This document shows positions 6,978 through 57,622 of a stretch of 64,000 bases of DNA, one piece after another. The notes under the pieces are model-generated. The model saw only the letters and a list, made by a program, of their open reading frames with translations, made no database searches and had not been told where the DNA came from. How positions within the stretch are numbered: the stretch's first letter is position 1; every line of letters starts with the position of its first letter. Position numbers and translations under genes: made by a program. The DNA is from a virus (Duplodnaviria; Caudoviricetes), in the IMG/VR virus record IMGVR_UViG_3300021255_005861, positions 121,667-185,666 of that record. One strand, written 5' to 3'.

Positions 6978-8330
6978 ACTATCCCCCACGCTAAAGACAT
7001 GCGGGATTCCCTAACTTACACAGAAACATTTCCTGCGATGGTTTCGGGCATTCTCGGTGTAATCCGAGCATTTTTAAGGACTTCGGTAGGTTCCCTTCCT
7101 AATGTCCGTTTGACTCCTAGATACAGAATATTACGTGCAGCGTTCACATCCCTATCGTGCTGTACGTTGCATACGGGGCATACCCACTGATTCACACCTA
7201 ACACGACAGCCGTATTTATATTCCCGCACACGTTACAGGTCTTGCTTGTGTATTGTGCAGGCACCTTTACAAGGTTCGTCTTATAGGACAGGTATTGCCG
7301 AAGCAACCCAAATCCTTGGTCGCCAACAGTCTTACCGTGTTCTAGCTCCGAAGCCATCTTGGATAGATCGATGTCCTCCATGAACACGTATTGGTATTTG
7401 TTGGCTAACTCCCGGCTAACCTTGTGAAGCCAATCCTTACGTTGGTTGGCTACTTTTTCGTATAGCCTCGCCACTTTAAGTCTGGCTTTTTGATATCGGT
7501 GGGATTGTTCGTTCTTTCCATTGACGAACCGGTTGGACTGGATTTGCTGGTATTTCGCTAGCTGCTTTTCCTTACGCTTCAAGAAACGGGGGCACTTGAT
7601 TTTCGTGCCGTCGCTCAAAGTGAGGAAAGAATCGGAGTTGCAGTTCCAATCTATGCCTACGGCTTTTCCATTTTGTATTTTCTTAATATCTTTAGTTTCT
7701 ACACAAATCTTGACATACCATTTTCCACTTGCAGACCGCTTAAAGGTAATGTTCTTCCATCTACCCTTGCAGAACTGCGAAGACGCATGGAGGGGTATAT
7801 AGCCAAGCCTACGAGATATGAACAGCCCTTTTGAATTGATGTGGGCTACATTTCTTTGCAATGCATACCTAAACGATGCCTTGGAGTTCTTTTTGCTCTT
7901 GAAGGTTGGTGGTTGCATAGGCTTTCCCTTGCGGGTACCCTTGAGAGATGCAAAGAAATTCGTATATGCTCCACGGACATCGCTCCATGTTTGTCCAAGT
8001 GGCACGGAATCCACTTCCTTAATCCACTCCAATGCTTCGGGCTTGAACTTCATGAACGTAGGCTTGTAGCCCTCAATAGGCATACTGTGGTCTTTGTTCT
8101 TGTTCTCCACCACCAGGTTGTAATACAGACGACAAAGACCAAGTGTCTTGTTGAAGATAGACACTTGTTCCTTGGTTGGATAGATTCTGTATTCGTAAGC
8201 TTTGTTCATAAGTTTATGTAAACTTTGACTATACTTTAAATATGCATAAGGTTTTTAGAATTTGCAATAGGTTTATTCAAAAATCTGGGCGATTCATTTT
8301 ACAGGCACTAAAAATTTGTGAGTATTCTCG
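6974..8330 (-). mobile_element. IS200/IS605-family (IS1341-like, tnpB-only) element
   Basis: AT-richer segment; subterminal hairpins at ~6983-7010 and ~8290-8330; right end finishes TTCAA on the minus strand; ends approximate. Confidence 0.75.
7016..8209 (-). CDS. tnpB: RNA-guided endonuclease TnpB
   Basis: AYEYRIYPT HTH start, RuvC D/E/D (GIDWN, MEDID, DRDVNAA), CxxC...CxxC zinc ribbon. Confidence 0.95.
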   Translation of the reverse strand: MNKAYEYRIYPTKEQVSIFNKTLGLCRLYYNLVVENKNKDHSMPIEGYKPTFMKFKPEALEWIKEVDSVPLGQTWSDVRGAYTNFFASLKGTRKGKPMQPPTFKSKKNSKASFRYALQRNVAHINSKGLFISRRLGYIPLHASSQFCKGRWKNITFKRSASGKWYVKICVETKDIKKIQNGKAVGIDWNCNSDSFLTLSDGTKIKCPRFLKRKEKQLAKYQQIQSNRFVNGKNEQSHRYQKARLKVARLYEKVANQRKDWLHKVSRELANKYQYVFMEDIDLSKMASELEHGKTVGDQGFGLLRQYLSYKTNLVKVPAQYTSKTCNVCGNINTAVVLGVNQWVCPVCNVQHDRDVNAARNILYLGVKRTLGREPTEVLKNARITPRMPETIAGNVSV

Positions 8331-8513
8331 TTACATTTCTATAACTTCTTTATATTCAATAATAAAGTTCTGATGCCACCACGAGTTAATCGTGAGCGCG
8401 TTGTTGCACTTGCCGTTGAGCCACAGGAAGTACGGGCCCTTGTCGGCGTGTTCCAACCCGTGCGTTGCGGTGAAGCCTATTCTATGTACGTTGCTCAATC
8501 CTAGATTTTTCAT
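8331..8513 (-). CDS. Stand-alone methyltransferase TRD-like mini-protein (cassette Y, 60 aa)
   Basis: MKNLG...GKCNNALTI...NFIIEYKE; ATGA overlap with upstream mini-ORF; same pattern as cassettes at 16889-18170. Confidence 0.6.
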   Translation of the reverse strand: MKNLGLSNVHRIGFTATHGLEHADKGPYFLWLNGKCNNALTINSWWHQNFIIEYKEVIEM

Positions 8514-13588: not shown

Positions 13589-14629
13589 ATGCCCCACAAC
13601 CTAGAGAAATTGACATACGGCATATCCGAGCTGCTCGACACGCTCGGCCTCAAGGGCTCGGTAGTTACCGTGTCAAGGGACGTGCTCGAGGTGCGCCTGT
13701 CCAAGGACGACGCCTTCGGCAGCGCCTTCCCGCTCAAGGAGCGCCCGCAGGTGCGACTCCACGCCGAGCCCATACTGCCCGACCGCAAGCCGAAGAAGAA
13801 GGAAGAGAAGCCCCCCGAGCAGGGGTTCTTCAAGGTGGCCTCCACCGACCCGATGAACTCGTGCGGCCTCGACGAGGAACAGCGCGAGGCGCTCTACGCC
13901 CTAGTGAACGGCAAGTACCCGTTCCTCTCCAAGACCAAGACGGACTCCCGGACGTGGGAGTGCACGTGCAGGGAGATAGTGTGGATAGCCGAGGGGCTGT
14001 TCTGGAAGTCGCACCGCTGGGATCCGGCGTGGCTCGGGCGCATGACCAAGAAGGGTGTTGGCCCGCAACTCATGTCCGGGCTGGCCACGGGGGCGCACGC
14101 CGTCATCCGCGCCCTCGCCGACAGCCTCGACGCCGTGGTGGAGCGGAACAAGGAGGGCTTCTGGTGGCCGTCCGTCGAGAAGGGCAGGCAGAAGAGGGAG
14201 CCCCTGCTCAGCTTCCTCGTGTCCCGCACCCGCAAGGGTACGGAGTGGAGCCCCTTCTGCGAGATATTCTGGGAGCGGAACAAGGCCGAGTCCATATCGT
14301 CCGGCCTGCCCGAGCGTGTGGTGGCCGTGGCGCACCGCATCATGGACGAGTCCCCGTGGCTCTCCTCGCTCCCGAAGCACTCCCAGGATTCCTACTGGGA
14401 CGGGGTGCGCAAGTACTACGAGTGGTACATGGCTGAGCGGGATACGCTTATGCGGAACACGAGGAACAGGGCCAAGTTGTCCGACTCGGGATCGGCCATA
14501 GATCTCGTGTACCAGTGGGACTCCGAGAATGGCCACAGGAAGGTGTCGGCGCGGTTCGTTCACCCCGGAGTAGACCTATGGGGGCCGTTCAAGGCCTGGT
14601 GCAAGGACACGAGAGGCATAACTTTGTAA
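13589..14629 (+). CDS. Hypothetical protein
   Basis: 346 aa, phage codon usage, follows the promoter motif. Confidence 0.7.
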   Translation: MPHNLEKLTYGISELLDTLGLKGSVVTVSRDVLEVRLSKDDAFGSAFPLKERPQVRLHAEPILPDRKPKKKEEKPPEQGFFKVASTDPMNSCGLDEEQREALYALVNGKYPFLSKTKTDSRTWECTCREIVWIAEGLFWKSHRWDPAWLGRMTKKGVGPQLMSGLATGAHAVIRALADSLDAVVERNKEGFWWPSVEKGRQKREPLLSFLVSRTRKGTEWSPFCEIFWERNKAESISSGLPERVVAVAHRIMDESPWLSSLPKHSQDSYWDGVRKYYEWYMAERDTLMRNTRNRAKLSDSGSAIDLVYQWDSENGHRKVSARFVHPGVDLWGPFKAWCKDTRGITL

Positions 14630-14642
14630 ATTTGGTAGCCAC

Positions 14643-15017
14643 ATGGAAAAGAAAAGAAAGACTGCAGGCCCGAGGCATCCGGGCAAGGACAAGTACCCGG
14701 TGCATCACGAGGCCGAGACTATAACCATTCCACGCGCCGAATACGACGCGATGGTGGAGGAACTGCGGGACAGGCGCATGCGTGCCAACCGCAGGTGGAT
14801 ATCCACCGATACGAGGCTCCCGGATCCCGAGGAGTACGTAATCGTGTACGGGTCGGACTGGTGGAATGGTGGCAGTTACGCGATGCTGAAGGTAATGAAG
14901 GAACGTGGCCCGTTCGGTGAGATTCAGTGGTCGGACGGGAACGGTCCCGTGTCCGTTGAGGACATCTCGTACTGGACGCATTTTCCCGCAGCCCCGCGAG
15001 GTAGAGATGGAAATTAA
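14643..15017 (+). CDS. DUF551-like phage protein
   Basis: WISTDTRLP...YWTHFP pattern. Confidence 0.55.
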   Translation: MEKKRKTAGPRHPGKDKYPVHHEAETITIPRAEYDAMVEELRDRRMRANRRWISTDTRLPDPEEYVIVYGSDWWNGGSYAMLKVMKERGPFGEIQWSDGNGPVSVEDISYWTHFPAAPRGRDGN

Positions 15018-15732
15018 GGGAAAGGTACACTGCTTATTCGAACAATCTGGGGTATTCAAGAACCAGTTCAAGGAACTCGGGTACGAGGCTTTCGACTACG
15101 ACATCCAAAACCACTTCCACGAGACCGACCACGTGGTGGATCTGTTCAAGGCGATAGAGGACGCCTACGACGGGAAGCCGAGCCTCTTCGACGACATCAC
15201 GCCCGACGACCTCATCATGGCGTTCTTCCCTTGCATCTACTTCTCGTGCATGAGCCAGATGCTCATAAGTTACACGCACCGCAACTACACGAATTACTCG
15301 CCAAAGGAGCGCTTCGACGCCATCCTCCAGCGTTCGGCGAACCGCGAGCTGTTCTTCTCCCGCGCCGTTAAGATGCTGGCCGTGGCGAAGATCCGGGGCC
15401 TTAGGATAATCATGGAGAACCCGTGGAGCGAGCAGACGTTTCTCAAGCAGAACTTCCCGTTCAACCCCAGCGTCGTGGACATGAACCGGACGCTCCGCGG
15501 CGACTACTACGTGAAGCCTACCGCCTACTGGTTCATCAACTGCGAGCCAACGAACGGGCAGACGCTACAGCCACGGAAGCCGGGGAAGAATATCTGCCAG
15601 GTAGCCCCCAACGGGATGCCCGGAATCTGTAACGAGGAACGCAGCCTCATACACCCGGACTACGCCCGCAACTTCATCTGCGACTTCGTGCTCGGGAAAC
15701 GGCAGGAATTTGGGCAACTCTCGCTCTTCTAA
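15007..15732 (+). CDS. Compact C5-cytosine methyltransferase-like protein
   Basis: CLFEQSG (motif I-like), FFPC (IV), MENP (VI), KPT (VIII-like); ends QLSLF. Confidence 0.65.
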   Translation: MEIKGKVHCLFEQSGVFKNQFKELGYEAFDYDIQNHFHETDHVVDLFKAIEDAYDGKPSLFDDITPDDLIMAFFPCIYFSCMSQMLISYTHRNYTNYSPKERFDAILQRSANRELFFSRAVKMLAVAKIRGLRIIMENPWSEQTFLKQNFPFNPSVVDMNRTLRGDYYVKPTAYWFINCEPTNGQTLQPRKPGKNICQVAPNGMPGICNEERSLIHPDYARNFICDFVLGKRQEFGQLSLF

Positions 15733-15736
15733 CGGG

Positions 15737-15758
15737 TTTTGCCCCTACGCTATATTGG
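15737..15758 (+). promoter_or_regulatory. Promoter-like motif TTTTGCC-N5-GCTATA
   Basis: TTTTGCCCCTACGCTATATTGG upstream of the split methyltransferase. Confidence 0.7.
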
Positions 15759-15786
15759 TAAAAACTCTCGCTAAAAGGAATATTTT

Positions 15787-16896
15787 ATGGGAATACGAGT
15801 ATTGAGCCTTTTCGACGGCATGGGTTGCGGCAGGATAGCCCTGGAGGAACTCGGAGTCAAGGTGGACACGTACTACGCGTCGGAGGTAGACAAGAACGCC
15901 ATCGCAATGGAAACTCTAAACTTCCCGGACACGGTCTGCCTCGGCGACGTGACTAAGGTGGACGCCCGCAAGCTCGGGCACATCGACCTGCTTATCGGCG
16001 GGTCGCCGTGCTTCACTAAGGGACACAAGGTACTTACCGAGAACGGGGAGAAGAACATCGAGGACATCGTGCTCGGCGACAGGGTGTTGACACACACGGG
16101 TTCGTATATGCCCGTAATCGATGTAGGAAGCAAGTTCTCGGACGACCTTTACGAGATGGTTCTCGCTGACGGGACTACGTATCACGTGACAGGAAACCAT
16201 CCGTTCTATGCTACTACCGATGGGAAGGTTTTTTCCTGGGTGGCCTGTTCGGAACTTACCCCGGAACATGGGATACTGAAGGTAGACCGAGTCACGGTCA
16301 CGCAGTTCAAGGGCAGGGATAGGATACCGGGCGATACCGTGTACAACATGACTGTGGACGTGGACCACAGCTACTCGGTTAATAATTACTTTGTACATAA
16401 TTGCACGAACTTCAGTTTCGCCGGTCGCCGCAACGGCATGAATACTACCACGAACGAAGAAATATACTCGCTCGATCGCTATCTTGAACTCAAGCGCGAT
16501 GGCTTCCAGTTTGACGGCGAGTCCTACCTGTTCTGGGAGTACATGCGCATCCTCGGGGAACTCCGCGAGACTAACCCGGACGTGTTCTTCTTTTTGGAGA
16601 ACGTTGAGATGGGTGAGAAGTGGGAATCCGTGCTGACGAAGGCGATCGGTATTCCCGGCGTGCACGTCAATTCCGCCCTCGTGTCCGCGCAGAACCGCCG
16701 TCGCATCTATTGGACTAATATCCGTACGAAGAATGGGGGACTGCTCGGGTTCGGGTGGCAGGTACCCGACATCCCGCAGCCCGAGGACAAGGGCATCATG
16801 CTCTCGGACGTGCTCGACGACGTAGTGGACAGGAAGTACTATCTCAAGGACGAGGTGGTGGACAAGCTGCTCGCCAACGGGGTGAAGGGTGCGTAA
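15787..16896 (+). CDS. Split C5-cytosine methyltransferase, N-terminal catalytic part (motifs I-VIII), intein-containing
   Basis: LFDGMG (I), GGSP|C (IV), LENV (VI), QNRRRIYW (VIII); ends before TRD and motifs IX/X. Confidence 0.9.
   Translation: MGIRVLSLFDGMGCGRIALEELGVKVDTYYASEVDKNAIAMETLNFPDTVCLGDVTKVDARKLGHIDLLIGGSPCFTKGHKVLTENGEKNIEDIVLGDRVLTHTGSYMPVIDVGSKFSDDLYEMVLADGTTYHVTGNHPFYATTDGKVFSWVACSELTPEHGILKVDRVTVTQFKGRDRIPGDTVYNMTVDVDHSYSVNNYFVHNCTNFSFAGRRNGMNTTTNEEIYSLDRYLELKRDGFQFDGESYLFWEYMRILGELRETNPDVFFFLENVEMGEKWESVLTKAIGIPGVHVNSALVSAQNRRRIYWTNIRTKNGGLLGFGWQVPDIPQPEDKGIMLSDVLDDVVDRKYYLKDEVVDKLLANGVKGA
16009..16401 (+). mobile_element. Mini-intein (131 aa) in the catalytic PC motif
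   Basis: CFTKG...TGNHPF...VHN followed by the catalytic Cys. Confidence 0.9.
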
Positions 16897-17080
16897 CAAG
16901 GCCTTATGTATGCCCTGCCTGCGCTACGGTGTGGTGGTACCCGAGTCGCAGAAAGTTCCTTGTCTTATATCTACGTACCAGCAGGACAGGTTCTACGACC
17001 CCGCGGGCGGGTTGCTCCCTGCGCTGGCTAAAAACCTTGAAGGATTTTTGATTTTGGTCTATGAAGAAAGTGCTCGTTAA
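16889..17080 (+). CDS. TRD-like mini-protein, cassette A (63 aa)
   Basis: KVPCL...YQQDRFYDPAG...FLILVYEE; GTG start overlaps the catalytic gene end. Confidence 0.65.
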   Translation: MRNKALCMPCLRYGVVVPESQKVPCLISTYQQDRFYDPAGGLLPALAKNLEGFLILVYEESAR

Positions 17081-17222
17081 TCCGCTCTTCAACCACCCGG
17101 TACACGGATGGCTCACGCTGTTGCAGGCCGAGGATAAGTCGTTCTGCCTGTGCGCCAAGTACGCGCATCAGCCACGGTTCGACATCAAGACGTACATTAT
17201 GGATTATGAGGATGTGGCATGA
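17061..17222 (+). CDS. TRD-like mini-protein, cassette B (53 aa)
   Basis: Manual translation MKKVLVNPLF...DKSFCLCAKY...TYIMDYEDVA. Confidence 0.65.
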   Translation: MKKVLVNPLFNHPVHGWLTLLQAEDKSFCLCAKYAHQPRFDIKTYIMDYEDVA

Positions 17223-17410
17223 TTAGGTGCACGTGGAAACAGCAACGCAGCGAGTTCGGGAAGCTCCACCGGCACGAATACGAAAACCTGCACTCGCGGG
17301 AATACGGCGGTAGGCAGGCCATGAAGGAAAAGGCGCTCGTGTTCGACAAGTGCGGACCGCTTACGCTCGCCCTCGGCGACAACGTCATCTTGGAACTGGA
17401 CGAGGTGTAG
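17219..17410 (+). CDS. TRD-like mini-protein, cassette C (63 aa)
   Basis: RSEFGKLHRHEYE...KCGPLTL...DNVILE; ATGA overlap, GAGG RBS. Confidence 0.7.
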   Translation: MIRCTWKQQRSEFGKLHRHEYENLHSREYGGRQAMKEKALVFDKCGPLTLALGDNVILELDEV

Positions 17411-17412
17411 CC

Positions 17413-17601
17413 ATGTCCGTTAATGTTTTGCGCATCCGAAGAAGCGACTACGGGAAAGAGCACCGCAAGGCGTACGAGTACGGGCATTCCCGCGAATACG
17501 GCGGGATGCAGTCCATGGTGGAACGCTATCCTAGTACCGACGGCAAGAGCGGCCCGCTAACGACCGTGCTCAAGGACAACTTAGTGATCCATTATGAGTA
17601 G
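17413..17601 (+). CDS. TRD-like mini-protein, cassette D (62 aa)
   Basis: RSDYGKEHRKAYE...DGKSGPLTTVLKDNLVIHYE; paralog of cassette C; GAGG RBS. Confidence 0.7.
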   Translation: MSVNVLRIRRSDYGKEHRKAYEYGHSREYGGMQSMVERYPSTDGKSGPLTTVLKDNLVIHYE

Positions 17602-17614
17602 TGCTCGTATATGA

Positions 17615-17634
17615 TTTTGCCCACCCGCTATAAT
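17615..17634 (+). promoter_or_regulatory. Internal promoter-like motif within the cassette array
   Basis: TTTTGCCCACCCGCTATAAT. Confidence 0.65.
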
Positions 17635-17641
17635 GTACGAT

Positions 17642-17802
17642 ATGGATAAGATGCCGGTTCTAGTTGGATACAAGTGTGGAGTGACCCCCCCCCATGCAAC
17701 GGGAAGGCGCCTACACTCACGACGGAACTGGCGCACCGGACGAACTCGTACGGCCTGCCCCACGTTTTGATATTTGAGATATTTAATGGAAAAGAACCTT
17801 AG
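17642..17802 (+). pseudogene. TRD-like cassette E, frameshifted at a C9 tract (candidate phase-variable, OFF)
   Basis: MDKMPVLVGYKCGVT-[C9 17685-17693]; second frame PCNGKAPTLTTELAH...PHVLIFEI; C7 or C10 restores frame. Confidence 0.65.
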
Positions 17803-17834
17803 AAACCCCCCCCCTCCCCCGGAAAGGAAGGTAC

Positions 17835-18008
17835 ATGAAGACTAGCATGCATTTCAGCAAGAGTTACTTCGGCGTGGACACTTGCACGGATCCTGCGTCA
17901 TCAAAAAGTTGCTGTCTTACGAGCGGGGACTACCCTACGGTACATGCGGGTGGAGTTGAAGGGTTCTGCAAAAGGACATACTTGTTGGACATTGAGGTAC
18001 TTGAATGA
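17835..18008 (+). CDS. TRD-like mini-protein, cassette G (57 aa)
   Basis: Manual translation MKTSMHF...SKSCCLTSG...TYLLDIEVLE; preceded by C9-T-C5 tract and GGAAGG. Confidence 0.6.
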   Translation: MKTSMHFSKSYFGVDTCTDPASSKSCCLTSGDYPTVHAGGVEGFCKRTYLLDIEVLE

Positions 18009-18170
18009 GGGTCGCATGTAATCCTACATGGAAGAATGGAATACTCATACCCCCCCCAGAGGAGGAACAAGAGTACTTGCATACAGGCGTTCCTGTGCAA
18101 GTGGTTCGTGCCAAGTAAGACTCATGACCTGACGTTCGTGATGGACTATGAAATTTTAGAAAAGGAATAA
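18005..18170 (+). pseudogene. TRD-like cassette H, frameshifted at a C8 tract (candidate phase-variable, OFF)
   Basis: MRVACNPTWKNGILI-[C8 18050-18057]; second frame QRRNKSTCIQAFLCK...TFVMDYEILEKE; C7 or C10 restores frame. Confidence 0.65.
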
Positions 18171-18173
18171 CCG

Positions 18174-18983
18174 ATGGCATTTTTCGACATGGAAGAGATA
18201 AAGCCCAAGGAGGAACCGTCCTCCGACGGGAGAATTATAACTCTCAACGGCAAGAAGGTGCACGTCCTCGGTATCCGCAGGCTCACTCCCGCCGAGTGCG
18301 CCCGCCTGCAGACCATACCCACGTGGTACGCATGGTACGGCAACTACGCGGATGAACTCGTGGACGGGGTGTCCACGAAGGGGTATAACGTGGCCCTCGG
18401 GCTGCTCTCGTCGGACGTCGTCACCAAGAACGTGTCCGAGGTGCTCTCCGTCATCCCCGTGGTGGAATCCTCGTGCACGCAGGTCAAGGCGGAGAAGCTC
18501 TCCGTGTCCTTCGATACGGACATCCCGGATTCTAGCGCCCGCTCGGTGTTGTTCGTCAAGGGCAAGGACGAGACGTCGCTCCCCGCCGGGTTTACCCGTG
18601 AGGTGGACATGGGAGGGTATCAAGTGTCGGTTATGCCTTCCGGCGTGCTGTCGGGCAGGTTGCCGGAGTCTACCGACGAGGTGGGTTTCATCAAGGTGCT
18701 CAAGGGCTTGCACGACGAGAGCCCCGTTACGGCGGTGTCGTACTTGATAGCGTGGTCTCTGTGCCGCGGTATCCTCGCCACGATGCACGGGGTGTCCCTC
18801 CGCGTGGACGGGACATGCACGGTCGCGGCAGGCAGGCTGACGTGGGAACTAACGTCGCTCCGGATTGGGCAGGTCAAGCAGATAAGCGACTCCAGCATAT
18901 ACAAGGCTCTCGGCAACGGGTGGACGGTGGATGTCGTCAAGCACTTCTTCTCGTTCCTCCCGAAGGAATGGCGTGCGGCGTGA
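18174..18983 (+). CDS. Split C5-cytosine methyltransferase, C-terminal part (motifs IX-X) with ~180 aa insertion
   Basis: IRRLTPAECARLQTIP (IX) and YKALGNGWTVDVV (X); own RBS and ATG. Confidence 0.85.
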   Translation: MAFFDMEEIKPKEEPSSDGRIITLNGKKVHVLGIRRLTPAECARLQTIPTWYAWYGNYADELVDGVSTKGYNVALGLLSSDVVTKNVSEVLSVIPVVESSCTQVKAEKLSVSFDTDIPDSSARSVLFVKGKDETSLPAGFTREVDMGGYQVSVMPSGVLSGRLPESTDEVGFIKVLKGLHDESPVTAVSYLIAWSLCRGILATMHGVSLRVDGTCTVAAGRLTWELTSLRIGQVKQISDSSIYKALGNGWTVDVVKHFFSFLPKEWRAA

Positions 18984-19649
18984 AGGACTGGACGGGAAAT
19001 CGCAACAGCACGGTAGCGCTACTAGGTAGCACCCGCGACACGGAAAACGTGCGTGAGGACAACGACTTCTACGCCACGCACCCGCTTGCTACGGAACTGT
19101 TGCTTGAACTGGAGGAGCTCTCGCACGATGTGTGGGAACCCTGCTGCGGGCAGGGTCATATCGGGAAGGTACTCGCGGCACGGGGCTTCAACGTGAAGGC
19201 TACAGATCTTGTCTACCGCGGATATGGTAGGGGGGGGGGAGGACTTCCTGCAGTGCACTACCCCGTTCGACGGGGATATCGTCACGAACCCCCCGTACAT
19301 GTACGCCCCAGAGTGCGTCATCAAGGCATTGGAGCTCATCCCCGAAGGCCGCAAGGTCTGCATGTTCCTCAAGCTGCAGTTCCTGGAAGGACTTTCCCAC
19401 TATGAACTTTTCAAGGCATACCCGCCACGGACTATTTACGTGGCCGTACGCCGCATGCAGTGCAGCAAGGGCGGGAAGTTCCTCGACGCCTCCATGGTGT
19501 GCTATTGCTGGTTTGTATGGATTAAGGGGTTTAAAGGTACACCCGAATTGAAATGGTTCAACTACGAGGCCCGCGAGACCGCATATCCCGAACTGCTGCA
19601 CATCGCCAACCCCGAAGATACTCCAGGCACATACCCGAAGTTCTTCTAG
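18980..19649 (+). pseudogene. Adenine (amino) DNA methyltransferase, frameshifted at a G10 tract
   Basis: DFYATHP, WEPCCGQG in one frame, TNPPY in another; G10 at 19230-19239; G9 gives GYGRGGEDFL. Confidence 0.8.
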
Positions 19650-19696
19650 GGGGGTCTGCTATATTATATTCAACACCTGCATAAAGGAAAAAAACT

Positions 19697-20770
19697 ATGA
19701 TTACTATCGAACACGAAAAACTCCTCTCCGCCCTCAAGAAGGTGCTCCCCGGCGTTGATGCCGGCACTACCGTCGTTACGGGCGCAACCCAGGTACTCTT
19801 TACCGGCAAGGCCGTCTGCTCCTACAACGGCACGACCTCCGTCACTACCCCGCTGGATATGCAGGAACTCGCCTTCTCCGTCAAGGGGATGGACCTGTAC
19901 AACCTGCTCTCCAAGTTCAACGAGCAGTCCGTGGAACTGGATGTCGCGGGAAATAAGCTGAAACTCAAGTCAGGCCGCACCCGCGCCTCCCTCACTACGC
20001 TGGACGGGACTACCCTGCAGGCCAACGTGGACGCCCTTGCCCTGGGCGACGTGGAGTTCAAGCCGCTCCCGGACACCTTCATTACGGGTCTTGCCATGTG
20101 CAAGTTCAACAACCCGAAGAAGGAACTGGATGGCATGGCCGTGGGTCCGTACAAGGACGCCTCCGCCATCTTCGCCACCGACACGAACCGCATCTGCATC
20201 TACGAACTCCCGGAAAAGATGGACGACTTTTGGATCGGCAGTTCCGCTATCGGGACTATTACCAAGCTCGGCACGCCGAAGGAATACTGCGTATCCGGTG
20301 CATGGCTCCACGTCAAGTACGACGATGGCACGGTTCTCTCCGTTACCCGCGTCAGCGGCACCAAGTTCCCGTACCCCGTTCCGCAGTGCACCGCCAACAT
20401 GGACGCGGCGCTCAAGTCCGAGCCCATCCTCGAGGGCACGCTCCCCGAGAACATCAAGGACGTTGTCGCCCGCGTGTCCGTGCTCGCGTCCTGCGTGAAC
20501 AACACGTCCAACATCATCAAGATGTCGTTCAGCGCCGAGGGTATCGAACTATACGCCGAGAACAACGACGGCTCCGCCACGGAATCCGTGTCCTGGGGTA
20601 CCGCTCCCGAGGGAGAGTTCCAGCCGACGGACATCTGGGTGGACAAGGCCTTCCTCCTCGAGGCCACGAACACGCTCATCCGCTTCAGCCTGTCCCGCGT
20701 GGGCAACATGACGGTAATGCTGTTCCGTACCGAGGGCTACAGCCAGCTCGTTGCCACGATGCAACGCTAA
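19697..20770 (+). CDS. DNA polymerase sliding clamp (beta/DnaN-like)
   Basis: 357 aa, directly upstream of the polymerase; ATDTNRI (cf. ATDGHRL), KFPYP. Confidence 0.7.
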   Translation: MITIEHEKLLSALKKVLPGVDAGTTVVTGATQVLFTGKAVCSYNGTTSVTTPLDMQELAFSVKGMDLYNLLSKFNEQSVELDVAGNKLKLKSGRTRASLTTLDGTTLQANVDALALGDVEFKPLPDTFITGLAMCKFNNPKKELDGMAVGPYKDASAIFATDTNRICIYELPEKMDDFWIGSSAIGTITKLGTPKEYCVSGAWLHVKYDDGTVLSVTRVSGTKFPYPVPQCTANMDAALKSEPILEGTLPENIKDVVARVSVLASCVNNTSNIIKMSFSAEGIELYAENNDGSATESVSWGTAPEGEFQPTDIWVDKAFLLEATNTLIRFSLSRVGNMTVMLFRTEGYSQLVATMQR

Positions 20771-20794
20771 CTATTTGGTGCATAAAATACCTCA

Positions 20795-20825
20795 CACGGG
20801 CGGAGGATATCCGCCCGTGCTTTTT
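20795..20825 (+). terminator. Rho-independent terminator
   Basis: CACGGGCGGA/TCCGCCCGTG stem plus T-run. Confidence 0.65.
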
Positions 20826-20843
20826 CAACCTCACAGGATTTTC

Positions 20844-23516
20844 ATGGGTTTCTTCAATATTCAGCCGGAAATGGTAGCGCCCCCGAAGAAGGGTGGATGC
20901 GACGCGTGCAATATGGACAGGAGCGGGGTAGACGCCCCGTTCGTGGGCGACGGCAGGGACGGGGTGCTTATTCTCTCCGACCTTCCCGCCAAGTACGAGG
21001 AAAACGGCGAGGACAAGCTGTTCACGGCGAGGCACTACGACTACCTGTGGAAACTGCAGGGCAAGAGGGGGCTTCCCGAATATTTCCTTGAGAAGGCGTG
21101 GCTCGGGTACGTCATCCCGTGCCACAAGGGAAACAAGGAGCCGGTGTACTCGTGCTGTTCGGCCCGTCTTGAAAGGCTCATCAGCGAACTGAAGCCGAAG
21201 GTCATCATCCCGATGGGTCCGATAGCGGTACAGGCGCTCATTTGGAACAGGATGGCGGGGCGAATCACGAACACGCTCCCGTCGCACCTCTACGGCAAGC
21301 AGATCCCCGACCGCTACTACAACTGCTGGATATGCCCCACGTACGGGACGGAGTTCCTCTCGTGGCAGCGGGACGACCGGTGCCCCTACGACTACTTCGC
21401 CCAGCATATCCGCGCCGCGTGGAAACTTATCAACGTACCGCTTCCCAAAATTCCCACCGATATCCGAGTGACGGGCGATCCGAAGGAGGCCGCCAAGTGG
21501 ATAGACGAGATAGTCGAGTGGGGGGAGGCAGATATCCTGGACAAGTCCCCCGAGGGGTATCACGACGTGGCGATAGACTACGAGACCACGGGGCTCAAGC
21601 CCCACCGCGACGGGCACGCCATCAAGGCCGCCTCGGTCGGGTACCGCAAGGACGGGGAGTACCATGCGATAGGCTTCCGATGGTACGGCGACTGCAAGGA
21701 ACTCGTGGACGCTTGGTACAAACTGACGCACCACGACAAGATAGGCCTCGTGGCGCACAAGGCGGACTTCGAGGCGTGCTGGACCCGCTTCCGCGCCGGC
21801 CTTAACGACGGGCGCACGGACTGGCCCACGAACTGGTCATGGGACACCTGCCTCGGGGCGCACGTCATCGACAACAACCAAAAAACCGGGCTCAAGCTCC
21901 ACACGTACTGCGAACTCGGAGTGCTCGGGTACGATACCGAGGTGGACTCGTTCCTGTCCACGATGATGACGGGCGAGGACAAGTCAAGCTGCAACGCCTT
22001 CAACCTGCTCAAGGAGCCCGTTGGCGTCCCGTGGAACGAACTCGTCTACTACTGCGGGCAGGACTCGCTGTACACCATATTTATCCGCGACAGGCAGTCC
22101 GCCCAGATGGTCGGGCTCGAGAAGCCGTTCCGCTTCTTCATGGGCGGTATGGACGCCCTCGCGAAGGTGCAGTCCGAGGGGCTGCCGATAGACTTTACCA
22201 AGATAGGGGCGCTCCAGGCCGAACTCGACGAGAAGTTCAAGGAGGCCGAGAAGGAGGCGCTATGCACTGAGGAGGCGAAGAAGTGGATGGAGGCGCACCC
22301 CGGAGAACTCTTCAACCCGCTCTCCAACAAGCAGGTCGTGGAGGTTCTCTACGGGCTATGCAAGATGAAGCCCCCTTCCGGCAAGGAGGACGCCACGGGC
22401 GACACGCTGGAGAAACTCGGGACTCCTCTCTGCAAGGCCATTCTCGGCATGCGCAGGTGGTCCAAGATAAAGGACTTCCTCAAGGGATACGAGCGCGAGG
22501 CCGTGTACGACGAGGAGAAGAAGTCCTACCTCATCCGACCTTTCTTCAACCTGTCCACGGGCGCGGGAGGGGAGAACAACGCGGGACCGCGTACCTATCG
22601 TTCGTCCGCCGACAGCCCGAACTTCCAGAACATCCCGAAGCGCGACAAGGAGATGAAGAAACTGCTCCGTTCCCTATTCGTAGCCCCCAAGGGATACCGC
22701 TTCATGGAGATGGACTACAAGAGCCTCGAGGTCATGGTGTCCGCAAGTTACCACCACGACCCGCAGATGATTCACTACCTGCAGAACCCCGAGTCCGATA
22801 TGCACCGCGACACCGCCTGCGACATGTACATCCGCAAGCAGGACGAGCTGACGAAGGAGGAGCGCTCCTCAATCAAGTCCGGTTACGTGTTCAGTTCCTT
22901 CTACGGGGCATCCTACAAGTCCTGCGCCCTCAATATGTGGAACAACATGCCAAAGTACACGAAGGAGCATCTCGCCAACGACTGCGGCATCAAGACCTAC
23001 GACCAGTGGGAGGAGCACGTCAAGAAGGGCGACGACATCTTCTGGAACCAGCGCTTCAAGGTGTACAACGGTTGGCGCGAGAAGGAATGGGAGCGCTACC
23101 AAAAATATGGCTATGTGCAGTCCTATACGGGATTCCGCTGCTGGGGTCCGATGGGGTATACGGAAGCCACTAACCGGTGTATCCAGGGGAGTGCGTTCCA
23201 CATCCTGCTCAAGGCATTGCAATATGACCTACGGGACATCAAGGAGCAGGGGCTTCAGTCCGTCATTATAGGCCAGATCCACGACGCCATCATCGCTCTC
23301 GTCAAGGAGGGCGAGGAGGATGCGCTGGCCCGCATCGTCTACCGCAACGGCGTGGAGCGCGTGAGCAAGGAGTTCCCGTGGATATGCGTCCCGCTCGTAA
23401 TCGAGGCCGACGCCTCCGACGTGGACGGCTCGTGGGCGAAGATGACCGAGGTCGGGGCGCTGGGACCGGACGGCATCGCGGACCGGGACTGGATAAAGAG
23501 ATACGAGGCGCACTGA
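20844..23516 (+). CDS. Family A DNA polymerase with N-terminal UDG-like domain and 3'-5' exonuclease
   Basis: DYETTG exonuclease I, PNFQNIP, DYKSLE (motif A), R...K...FYG (B), IHD (C); N-terminal Cys-rich UDG4-like region. Confidence 0.9.
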   Translation: MGFFNIQPEMVAPPKKGGCDACNMDRSGVDAPFVGDGRDGVLILSDLPAKYEENGEDKLFTARHYDYLWKLQGKRGLPEYFLEKAWLGYVIPCHKGNKEPVYSCCSARLERLISELKPKVIIPMGPIAVQALIWNRMAGRITNTLPSHLYGKQIPDRYYNCWICPTYGTEFLSWQRDDRCPYDYFAQHIRAAWKLINVPLPKIPTDIRVTGDPKEAAKWIDEIVEWGEADILDKSPEGYHDVAIDYETTGLKPHRDGHAIKAASVGYRKDGEYHAIGFRWYGDCKELVDAWYKLTHHDKIGLVAHKADFEACWTRFRAGLNDGRTDWPTNWSWDTCLGAHVIDNNQKTGLKLHTYCELGVLGYDTEVDSFLSTMMTGEDKSSCNAFNLLKEPVGVPWNELVYYCGQDSLYTIFIRDRQSAQMVGLEKPFRFFMGGMDALAKVQSEGLPIDFTKIGALQAELDEKFKEAEKEALCTEEAKKWMEAHPGELFNPLSNKQVVEVLYGLCKMKPPSGKEDATGDTLEKLGTPLCKAILGMRRWSKIKDFLKGYEREAVYDEEKKSYLIRPFFNLSTGAGGENNAGPRTYRSSADSPNFQNIPKRDKEMKKLLRSLFVAPKGYRFMEMDYKSLEVMVSASYHHDPQMIHYLQNPESDMHRDTACDMYIRKQDELTKEERSSIKSGYVFSSFYGASYKSCALNMWNNMPKYTKEHLANDCGIKTYDQWEEHVKKGDDIFWNQRFKVYNGWREKEWERYQKYGYVQSYTGFRCWGPMGYTEATNRCIQGSAFHILLKALQYDLRDIKEQGLQSVIIGQIHDAIIALVKEGEEDALARIVYRNGVERVSKEFPWICVPLVIEADASDVDGSWAKMTEVGALGPDGIADRDWIKRYEAH

Positions 23517-52197: not shown

Positions 52198-52270
52198 CCC
52201 GTAAGCAAAAAATAATATCGCCCTCCGTGAGAAATAAGTTATATTTATACGCGGAGGTTTTTTTTTGTAT

Positions 52271-54713: not shown

Positions 54714-54997
54714 CGGAGTTATTGATATTCTGCGCCTCGGTGGTGCTCGTTATAGTGGGGACGGCGGTCCTGGTGACACTCACGGAGGATAAAAAATAGT
54801 TTTTCCGTAAGTTTTCCGTAAAATATATGTATATTTAGGTACATGAGAAACTACGGGAAAGCATATACGGAACATTGCGGCTCTAGCGGGCTACTTTCTC
54901 CGTGCCCCCCCCCTACGTTAAATTTTATTTACATTTCAGTATGCTCGCCCGAGCGGATTGATGTCCGTCCGGGTATTTCTGCATATACGGAGGATCT

Positions 54998-57622
54998 ATG
55001 GGAACCAAGCGCATCATCAACATGAACGCCACTACCGATTTTGAATCGGACGACAACATCGTGGTAGACAGCGAAACCGCGGGCACGCGCAAGATGGCGC
55101 AGAGCGTCCTGAAGGAGAAGCTCCGCGAGGACTGCCTCGCCGGCATCCACAACCTCACGCCGGCGACGGATTTCGCCACCGGAGATACAATCGTGGTGGA
55201 CAACGCCACTGACGGGCCTAGGGGTATGAACAAGGACGTACTTCTGGCCAAGACTGCACAAAATGCACTAGGTAGCATCAAGAACCTCTCGACAAGCATC
55301 ACCGCCTTCCGCAGCGGCGACGTGATACCCGTGGACGGACCGGGTGGCACCGCGAAGATGAGCAAGGACTCGCTACTCCAAAAAACTGCTGATGCTTCGG
55401 TAACATTGCCAAAGCCATTCGGTTCTGCGGTCGACATTGTTGATAGCGATATAGTCCAGTTCAAAAATGGATTTTACAGCAACATCGGGTACAACTCATC
55501 ATATACGCATAAGTATTGCGAGATTGATCCCGCCTTTGTAAAGTCAATCAAGATTACTAAAAATGAAGTTGCTGTCGTTACGTTATATGCCGCAGTAGTT
55601 GAACATGCTAATGGGACATATAGTGTATTCCAACCACTCAATGTTGCATCAACTGAACTTACAATTAACATTGAGAATAAACTGAATGATGGCGACAAGT
55701 TGTACCTCAACAAGTTCTCCTTTGTAACTAAGATTGAAGTGACTCCGAAGCAGAGCCTTGAGGCAATGCAAGACTCTTGTAACTTTATTCGTATAACTAG
55801 AAATAAACTCGTCAATGGCTTCCTCCGTGAGTTATACATCAAGGGAACGGATACTCCGGCATTTATCAAAATGGAACTTGAGTCTTCGAAGGTATGGGTC
55901 AATGTACTAGATGCTGGGAATAATGTCATTGCGAAGTTTGACACAACGAATATGGGAATCGTTGACGCAAGCGCTAAATCGGCTAACACCGAAATTGCAA
56001 AGGCTGTGATTGCCAATGGCGCGACTACTAACATAGGTATTGGGTATACGGATATTGTTACCGATTGCTCCCTTGAGCATTGTCCTATCATCAAGGCTTC
56101 GCTGATGGATGATGCTGTTGACGCCAAACTTGAAAGCATCTTTACTACGTTATTCGTCAACTTGAGTCCTACTATCGTGCCGGCATTGTCAATGATTAAG
56201 TTCTACCCGCACTTCGTCACTGACCATTACAACTACAAGACATCGGATTTACCTGCAGAAGGCACTTGGGTTTACGCGGGCTTCAAAATGAGTGAGGCTT
56301 GGAAGAAAGACCACGACTACTTCATCGCTATAGACCTTGAGGTAGTGACCGACACAAAGACTACTGGTGGGAATTTCTACGGACAACTTATTGCAAAGGG
56401 TGCAACCAACCAAACTGTATCCAACCAAGCAACTCCGGTTGCTGGCGTGGTCACGGGTACAAGGGGAACTCTTAAAGGTAAGTTTACCATCAATGCTAGT
56501 ATTGATACTTGGCCTACTGCAAACAATTTCATCCTGCAAGCGGGTAACTACACATCAAGCGAAAGCCTCGAAATCAATGTGTACAACGTATTTGTGATTG
56601 ATATGGGCGTGAGCGGGACTGACGGATACATTGACTATGCGACAGCAGATGCTTGGCTTACTGAATACGGATTTGTTGACACAAAGAAGGTAATCGCTGA
56701 ATGTCAAAAGGCCGATGTTGCCCGAGTCGCAGAAAGTATAGAGTCGCTCAATGTTGGTGGAGATATTGACCTCTGGGGAGACTCTTTGGTCGCACAGAAT
56801 TATGGTAGCATCATCGCATCCAAACTTGGAAGGAACGTGTACTCGCACGGCTTTGGCGGTAAGAATAGCGGATATATTCGTGACCAGTTCCTCGCGTATG
56901 CCGACAAGTCGAACACCATCATCATCAATGTCGGCCGTAACGATGCAGCGACTGGCAATGCGGACAAAGTGTTCCAAAACATTGCGGCTATGGTAGATGC
57001 AATACCTCACGAGAATTTCATTATATGTTGTCCACCAAACGGCAACTACGCAGGTGAAAGCGAAGGAGGTGCCATATATTCCACTTTCTTCGAAACTCTT
57101 GAGGAACGATTGAGCAAGGCTTATCCGGCCAATTTCCTCAATACACGTGAGGGTACGATTTATTCCTACGATATGGGAGAAGTGAGGCTTGCCGAAGGTT
57201 TCACGAAACCAAACTTGAACGCAAGTGTAACAATCAAGGTAACTGACAGCGAATTCCTCACAACGTATAATGCCGCAGATGTTACTCGTTACGGGTCAAG
57301 CGAAATGGAAAAAATCGCCATTGGTAAAACCATTGATGCCTGCGATGTGTATGCGGTAACGGCTCACGATGACGATGCCAACACCATCACGGCAACACTA
57401 ATAGTAGATGGCAGCAGTGTGTCAAGTGGAAATACTTTCGACAACACAACAAGTGGCGGTGCTGTGTACTATGCACGGGTAATGCAGTATATGGACTGGA
57501 AAAATTGGAAGGAAGATACAACTCAGTCTACATTTCGTGCGGATGGCATCCATATGAGTGATCGAGGGAAAAATTGCCTTGCAAATTTACTTTGCAAGAA
57601 AATTGTGGCAATGAAGATATAA
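54998..57622 (+). CDS. Tail fibre/spike-like protein with C-terminal SGNH (GDSL) hydrolase domain
   Basis: Three N-terminal ~42 aa repeats; WGDSL, GRND, DGIH blocks. Confidence 0.65.
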   Translation: MGTKRIINMNATTDFESDDNIVVDSETAGTRKMAQSVLKEKLREDCLAGIHNLTPATDFATGDTIVVDNATDGPRGMNKDVLLAKTAQNALGSIKNLSTSITAFRSGDVIPVDGPGGTAKMSKDSLLQKTADASVTLPKPFGSAVDIVDSDIVQFKNGFYSNIGYNSSYTHKYCEIDPAFVKSIKITKNEVAVVTLYAAVVEHANGTYSVFQPLNVASTELTINIENKLNDGDKLYLNKFSFVTKIEVTPKQSLEAMQDSCNFIRITRNKLVNGFLRELYIKGTDTPAFIKMELESSKVWVNVLDAGNNVIAKFDTTNMGIVDASAKSANTEIAKAVIANGATTNIGIGYTDIVTDCSLEHCPIIKASLMDDAVDAKLESIFTTLFVNLSPTIVPALSMIKFYPHFVTDHYNYKTSDLPAEGTWVYAGFKMSEAWKKDHDYFIAIDLEVVTDTKTTGGNFYGQLIAKGATNQTVSNQATPVAGVVTGTRGTLKGKFTINASIDTWPTANNFILQAGNYTSSESLEINVYNVFVIDMGVSGTDGYIDYATADAWLTEYGFVDTKKVIAECQKADVARVAESIESLNVGGDIDLWGDSLVAQNYGSIIASKLGRNVYSHGFGGKNSGYIRDQFLAYADKSNTIIINVGRNDAATGNADKVFQNIAAMVDAIPHENFIICCPPNGNYAGESEGGAIYSTFFETLEERLSKAYPANFLNTREGTIYSYDMGEVRLAEGFTKPNLNASVTIKVTDSEFLTTYNAADVTRYGSSEMEKIAIGKTIDACDVYAVTAHDDDANTITATLIVDGSSVSSGNTFDNTTSGGAVYYARVMQYMDWKNWKEDTTQSTFRADGIHMSDRGKNCLANLLCKKIVAMKI

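Follow-up and report, generated by a model that had tools for sequence, protein, structure and literature searches.

The locus described here raises the question of whether long C and G tracts, which break the reading frames of small genes within a phage DNA methylation locus, switch these genes on and off, or whether the broken frames are the product of sequencing error, gene decay or recoding. The window analyzed is a stretch of 64,000 nucleotides from a large uncultured phage, comprising bases 121667-185666 of a 185.7-kb IMG/VR virus record, and all features of the locus given below lie on its + strand. A sequence-only reading of the window had proposed slipped-strand phase variation of individual methylation specificities, resulting in a phage population with mixed methylomes, and had named homopolymer error as the main alternative.

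A split C5 methyltransferase and the mini-genes between its halves

The locus encodes a C5-cytosine DNA methyltransferase that is divided over two genes. The N-half (15787..16896; Pfam PF00145, 2.4e-22) contains motifs I-VIII, with the catalytic PC motif interrupted by a mini-intein (Hint domains at residues 74-199; GGSP/C...VHN/CTNFSFAG), and the C-half (18174..18983; Pfam PF00145 positions 268-298, and PHROG methyltransferase families) contains motifs IX and X, which are separated by a long insert. The ORFs located between the two halves are short (53-63 codons) and coupled, and each displays a K-x-x-T/C-L-like core followed by a hydrophobic tail with a Glu at its end. Motifs I-VIII, each of the modules, and motifs IX-X are encoded by distinct ORFs with their own stop and start codons, and this layout of two halves with separate modules is also found in the relatives L019, L022, L101 and L114. 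According to the ORF list, four of the mini-genes (16889-17080, 17061-17222, 17219-17410 and 17413-17601, together 16889..17601) are free of tracts; they are translationally coupled, and equivalent arrays are present in relatives. Inspection of the ORFs within 14000-22000 revealed no res or hsdR gene or other restriction partner, and a scan for consensus promoters and terminators gave nothing useful.

The intein of the N-half differs in size among genomes: it is a mini-intein in the window, is larger in L019 (3816-5552) and L101 (1-930), with faint matches to LAGLIDADG homing endonucleases in the L101 form, and is missing from the N-halves of L022 (4995-5711) and L114.

The mini-proteins have no Pfam or PHROG family match. 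Their identity is inferred from a related phage (L026), which encodes a single-chain 508-aa enzyme having the same N-half and several core-plus-tail modules placed before motif IX. The first cassette of the window (A, 16889-17080) aligns to the last target-recognition domain (TRD) module of this enzyme (E 6e-5), and the in-frame form of the cassette E protein discussed below aligns to the same module (E 0.01). These alignments support the view that the mini-genes encode target-recognition modules; the assignment is based on homology, their role in specificity and their effect on methylation are inferred, and the mode by which they would join the two halves has not been shown.

The closest relatives in IMG/VR (L019-L022, with 78-83% identity over the N-half) retain the split enzyme and possess arrays in which the number of intact mini-genes ranges from five to over ten. 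These arrays lack C and G runs of 7 or longer, which indicates that the system can function without tracts. The array of L019 is interrupted by a 412-aa ORF (7105-8343), which we take by its appearance, and without a family search, to be a TnpB of the IS200/IS605 type; further cassettes follow it.

Homopolymer tracts and the frames of the genes that carry them

Four tracts are found at the locus: C9 at 17685-17693, C9-T-C5 at 17806-17820, C8 at 18050-18057 and G10 at 19230-19239, all with exact positions and lengths. The C9, C8 and G10 tracts are located inside ORFs, and C9-T-C5 lies between ORFs. The tract coordinates and lengths given by the sequence-only reading held, as did its observation that four of the window's five C/G runs with at least 8 bases fall together; they lie within 1.56 kb. 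The whole 185.7-kb record contains only six such runs, four of them at the methylase locus, and a rough scan-statistic estimate, made by hand and not computed, places the probability of this clustering below 1e-3. The spectrum of run lengths in the window also shows a gap: for C, runs of 6 occur four times and runs of 9 three times, with a single run of 8 and no run of 7; for G, runs of 6 occur ten times, lengths 7-9 are unoccupied, and there is a single run of 10. The raw number of C8 words is not beyond chance (10 versus 4.5 expected, with 9 of 100 dinucleotide shuffles reaching 10) and was dropped as an argument for special tracts; what sets the tracts apart is instead their clustering, the gap in run lengths and the variation among relatives described below.

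The two remaining runs are located elsewhere. The fifth run of the window, a C9 at 54905-54913, is intergenic and located approximately 85 nt upstream of an 874-aa ORF (54998-57622); it is possibly another length-variable control tract. The sixth run of the record is a G8 outside the window (G000:C1:88150-88157; L001:1501-1508), which lies in the ribosome-binding region of a 311-aa ORF, its end being 4 nt short of the ATG. The longest A/T homopolymer of the window is a T9 (52258-52266).

Three genes are out of frame at their tracts. Cassette E (17633..17802) is OFF in the window, with its leader in frame 2 (from 17633) and its core and tail in frame 1 (to 17802) on either side of the C9 tract at 17685..17693. 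Cassette H (18005..18170) is OFF as a full-length gene, with its leader in frame 2 and its core and tail in frame 0 on either side of the C8 tract at 18050..18057, and its halves align to the intact paralogue at 17061-17222. Both cassettes had been described as out of frame exactly at the tract, with C7 or C10 restoring the frame. The frames of both cassettes were verified and this held for each; for H, C13 would also do so. Cassette H retains a further ATG at 18036, from which the frame runs through the tract without interruption; the resulting 44-aa ORF, truncated at its N-terminus, was called by a gene caller in L018. The third gene encodes a small NPPY-type DNA methyltransferase of the adenine type (18968..19649), is located directly downstream of the C-half and overlaps the stop codon of the latter. 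It is OFF in the window, being frameshifted at the G10 tract (19230..19239): the 5' part, from 18968, is in frame 2, whereas the 3' part, which ends at 19649, is in frame 0; G9 or G12 joins the two parts. The intact 226-aa form (P0128, identical to the window allele with G9) matches phrog_799, 'DNA methyltransferase' (9.6e-61).

The C9-T-C5 tract (17806..17820) had been read as part of a 19-codon leader ORF that would fuse to cassette G upon loss of one C. This ORF exists in the window, but its reading as a coding leader failed. The tract starts 3 nt past the stop codon of cassette E and ends 14 nt before the start of cassette G (17835..18008), which the ORF list gives as intact, with its own start codon and no coding tract, and which is kept in L101, L105, L113, L114 and L119. 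In every copy read, the tract is found just past the E stop and ends approximately 14 nt before the ATG of G, and the stretch containing the leader ATG of the window is diverged in L105 and L114. Because it follows the stop codon of E, the third tract cannot shift a coding frame, and gating of G via the leader ORF was rejected. It is nonetheless hypervariable: C8 in L119, C9 in L113, C11 in L101 and L114, C12 in L108 and L110, C13 in L107, C14 in L105 and L109, and C12-T-C5 in L118 and L120. Five runs with identical flanks vary solely in this tract (C12 to C14), with the caveat that lengths of C12-C14 derived from short-read assemblies may be off by one. The tract could be a hypermutable spacer that tunes the expression of G, or it could be a neutral by-product.

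A conserved element, TGATTTTGCCCAC..GCTATAATGTA (17611-17638), is located upstream of cassette E and precedes it in every relative (L099, L101, L105, L113, L114, L118 and L119). Within this element, a TATAAT box overlaps the first ATG of cassette E, and E may therefore start its own transcript, although this is no more than a possibility.

Tract lengths among relatives and the rival explanations

Not all routes to relatives were informative for tract variation. Exact-flank scans with a variable gap gave zero matches in IMG/VR and in JGI metagenome contigs (the record's own kin being excluded there), the relatives reached via the C-half were too distant to be useful, and L019-L022 could not test it. 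The informative route was the 90%-identity cluster of the adenine-type methylase. This cluster (at least 90% identity) comprises 23 proteins, including full-length forms of 226 aa, a form of 227 aa with an additional Gly, and gene calls cut short to 116, 141 and 146 aa; exact look-ups of its members gave 25 further contigs originating from many sequencing runs. In addition, two more assemblies, namely a 190,986-bp contig in ENA and a Logan contig of SRR873598, match the window with 100% identity along 2851 bp, all four tract lengths included.

The G tract, delimited by the flanks GGATATGGTA and AGGACTT, is G10 in the window group versus G9 in L099 and L100, whose sequences otherwise agree with it throughout 310 nt, and a second allele of the methylase occurs with G8 (L101), G9 (L103) and G12 (L102). 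In L123 the tract is interrupted (AGTGGTGGGG) and encodes GSGGE, the same region of the peptide, with interrupted codons, so the G run is a matter of codon choice and not a requirement of the protein. The tract of cassette E is found in lengths of 7, 8, 9 and 10 between conserved flanks. It is C9 in the window group, L099, L100, L101 and L119 (nine assemblies in all), C10, with a called gene of 58 aa, in L103, L105, L107, L108 and L110 (five runs), C7, with a called gene of 52 aa, in L113, and C8 in L114 and L118. Both halves of the E cassette of the window match the intact 58-aa (L105, C10) and 52-aa (L113, C7) proteins; the two in-frame lengths that had been predicted, C7 and C10, occur naturally with intact mini-genes. 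The tract of cassette H is C8 in the window group versus C12, with identical flanks, in L114, L115 and L116. Both lengths are out of frame, and no in-frame H allele was found among the relatives examined.

Further tracts are present in the arrays of these relatives, and the design is general among this group of phages. L114 contains eight tracts of C8-C12 in an array of 1.5 kb, most of them located approximately 15-20 codons into a mini-gene, and five of them lie in a 740-bp stretch without a called gene. One other cassette carries G13 (out of frame) in L113 versus G9 (in frame) in L117, and another carries G10, out of frame, in both.

These comparisons show that tract length is the sole difference between otherwise identical copies, that all frame states occur, and that the in-frame copies are intact. 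A change in length of one or two units is sufficient to move a gene in or out of frame, and natural in-frame alleles exist for E (C7 and C10) and for the methylase (G9 and G12).

A first objection is that the tract lengths are homopolymer errors of sequencing or assembly, and that the true genome is in frame. In its favor, all data are short-read metagenome assemblies, in which the calls of C12-C14 are the least secure, and three contigs (L103:1-21, L109:1-30 and L120:1-22) have their starts only 10-16 nt ahead of a tract, suggesting that assembly graphs are unstable there. Against it, the out-of-frame lengths were obtained repeatedly, in independent runs and with different assemblers (nine times for C9 and three times for G10, and likewise five times for C10), and the differences exceed plus or minus one (C7 versus C10, G8 versus G12, C8 versus C12). 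Because the lengths recur in independent runs, error, the main alternative of the sequence-only reading, is excluded as the main cause, and we regard it as all but ruled out altogether. Contig starts beside tracts are also what a branch in a de Bruijn graph is expected to produce, and they are possibly a hint of mixed lengths within samples.

A second objection is decay, according to which the tract-bearing cassettes and the adenine-type methylase are dispensable and are being lost, the frameshifts merely gathering at homopolymers without any adaptive switching. Consistent with this, most tract-bearing cassettes are out of frame in the consensus assemblies, the five-tract stretch of L114 has no called gene, relatives do without tracts, and deletion forms exist. 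One of the latter, found in L118 (1875-1951) and L120 (43-120), is a 42-aa hybrid mini-gene in which the first nine codons of G are fused to the tail of H, and is attributed to a deletion between neighboring cassettes. In the other, found in two runs (L121:1560-1640 and L122:20-110), a recognition cassette (...FRPFRNR-G8) runs from its G tract straight into the post-tract half of the methylase, and the remaining array, the C-half and the 5' half of the methylase are all absent; this tract-to-tract junction may have arisen by recombination between two tracts with similar flanks (TA-Gn-AGG), or may be a shared misassembly.

Decay is contradicted by the pattern of substitution in the broken genes. 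According to hand counts, the core of H differs between the window and L114 by 11 synonymous and 3 replacement changes, the core of E differs between the window and L099 by 5 synonymous and 2 conservative changes, and the leader of E, over three backgrounds, shows 3 synonymous and 2 conservative changes in the leader frame. The excess of synonymous changes in the broken H and E cores points to purifying selection. Stop codons and indels away from the tracts, which decay would be expected to leave, were not seen in the broken genes, and this absence, together with the substitution pattern, argues against simple decay. Moreover, in-frame and out-of-frame alleles occur on the same background, and tracts of 8-14 are almost absent elsewhere in the genome, yet are found at the same relative place in many cassettes. 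We therefore consider decay unlikely.

A third explanation is recoding at a fixed tract, in which the out-of-frame length is functional via ribosomal frameshifting on the Pro or Gly codons or via slippage of RNA polymerase, and differences in DNA length are incidental. Cassette E is C9 in nine assemblies representing at least four backgrounds, with both halves looking selected, and the sequence C CCC CCC allows tRNA-Pro to re-pair perfectly after a -1 slip. Against recoding, the lengths of E span all three frames (C7-C10) and the methylase occurs with G8, G9, G10 and G12; in-frame alleles need no recoding; the shifts required differ, as E would need a -1 shift, whereas H and the G tract would need +1; and RNA polymerase slippage is best documented on A/T runs. 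Since in-frame alleles exist and all frames occur, recoding cannot be the main story, and as such it is very improbable. It might still make out-of-frame alleles leaky, which would be one conceivable reason for the frequency of C9 in E.

The reading that best accommodates these observations, and which we consider likely, is that the tracts are hypermutable homopolymer tracts (contingency loci) that switch the cassettes and the adenine-type methylase. The proposal of phase variation, as tested by tract lengths across relatives, is supported, with the tracts of E and H, the G tract and the third tract all varying. Switching within a population and mixed methylomes, which had also been proposed, remain inference, as only differences between consensus assemblies have been shown.

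A proposed switch of phage DNA methylation and its counterparts

Under phase variation, slippage during replication of the phage DNA would add or remove tract bases at a high rate, and the change in length would move E, H or the neighboring adenine-type methylase in or out of frame. Each mini-protein that is ON is predicted to supply one recognition module to the split C5 methyltransferase, and each tract would thereby switch one methylation specificity. The phage population would then be a mix of methylation genotypes, and this mixture may act as a hedge between hosts whose restriction targets unmethylated DNA and hosts whose restriction targets methylated DNA. A genome that had just switched would still be packaged carrying the methylation of its parent, and its own pattern would appear only in the next infection. 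Out-of-frame lengths make up approximately two thirds of those observed, so that the states look nearly free-running; the occurrence of the OFF length C9 of E in nine assemblies and several backgrounds, together with the absence of any in-frame H, suggests that the default is OFF. A bolder reading, towards which the present evidence inclines us neither for nor against, is that of a combinatorial methylome switch, in which one split core is served by many free-standing mini-proteins, each independently gated by a tract, with up to eight tracts in one array of a relative and the adenine-type methylase gated likewise. If so, the progeny of one lineage would display up to 2^n methylation patterns, the phage would gain protection from classical restriction at the price of exposure to methylation-dependent systems, and competition among expressed modules for the one core is also possible.

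Contingency loci are known from other phages. Campylobacter phages of the genus Fletchervirus possess hypermutable poly-G tracts in receptor-binding genes (Sorensen et al. 2021, Cell Rep 35:109214), and contingency loci have been described in T2/T4 in a 2025 preprint (bioRxiv 10.1101/2025.10.21.683753), which also mentions in passing a poly-G tract in a Bordetella phage methylase gene that was not studied (bioRxiv 10.1101/2025.10.21.683753). The locus described here resembles those of Fletchervirus and T2/T4 in that slippage of homopolymers inside genes would generate mixed phage populations as a bet-hedge. It differs in that their tracts are found in receptor-binding or other single genes, whereas those described here belong to a methylation locus, with one tract per recognition mini-gene; given this location, the varying trait would be the phage's own DNA methylation pattern.

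Phase-variable methyltransferases of bacteria (the Type III mod genes of phasevarions, repeats in Type I hsdM/hsdS, and the R-M genes of Helicobacter that are gated by homopolymers) are likewise switched ON and OFF by repeats inside genes. These are cellular Type I/III adenine systems that usually affect host gene regulation, in contrast to the phage-borne orphan split C5 enzyme with its recognition mini-genes and small NPPY methylase. A phasevarion is recognized by a switched mod, hsdM or hsdS gene, and this criterion is not met, the switched genes being TRD-like mini-genes and the NPPY methylase.

The multispecific C5 enzymes of Bacillus phages (M.SPRI, M.Phi3TI, M.Rho11sI and M.H2I; Trautner laboratory) combine one core with several short target-recognizing domains. 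The locus shares this principle of one core with several recognition domains, and the L026 enzyme is a single-chain, multi-TRD relative. In the Bacillus phage enzymes the domains are fused in tandem and always present, whereas here each is encoded by its own gene and some are gated by tracts; the hallmark of the SPR and phi3T enzymes, a single polypeptide with several tandem TRDs placed between motifs VIII and IX, is absent. No phage methyltransferase with recognition modules encoded as separate, individually gated genes was found in the literature searched. Phage contingency loci and phase-variable bacterial methylases are already known, and what is new is the separate gating of individual recognition mini-genes.

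Phages evade restriction by carrying methyltransferases, and bacteria randomize methylation via repeat tracts. If the proposed switch is true, this phage turns the bacterial repeat-tract trick on its own anti-restriction equipment, one specificity at a time, which would explain how one lineage persists among hosts with conflicting restriction systems. The 'broken' methylase genes encountered in phage metagenomes should then not be annotated as pseudogenes, and the arrays would constitute a naturally occurring repertoire of small, interchangeable recognition modules for a C5 methyltransferase.
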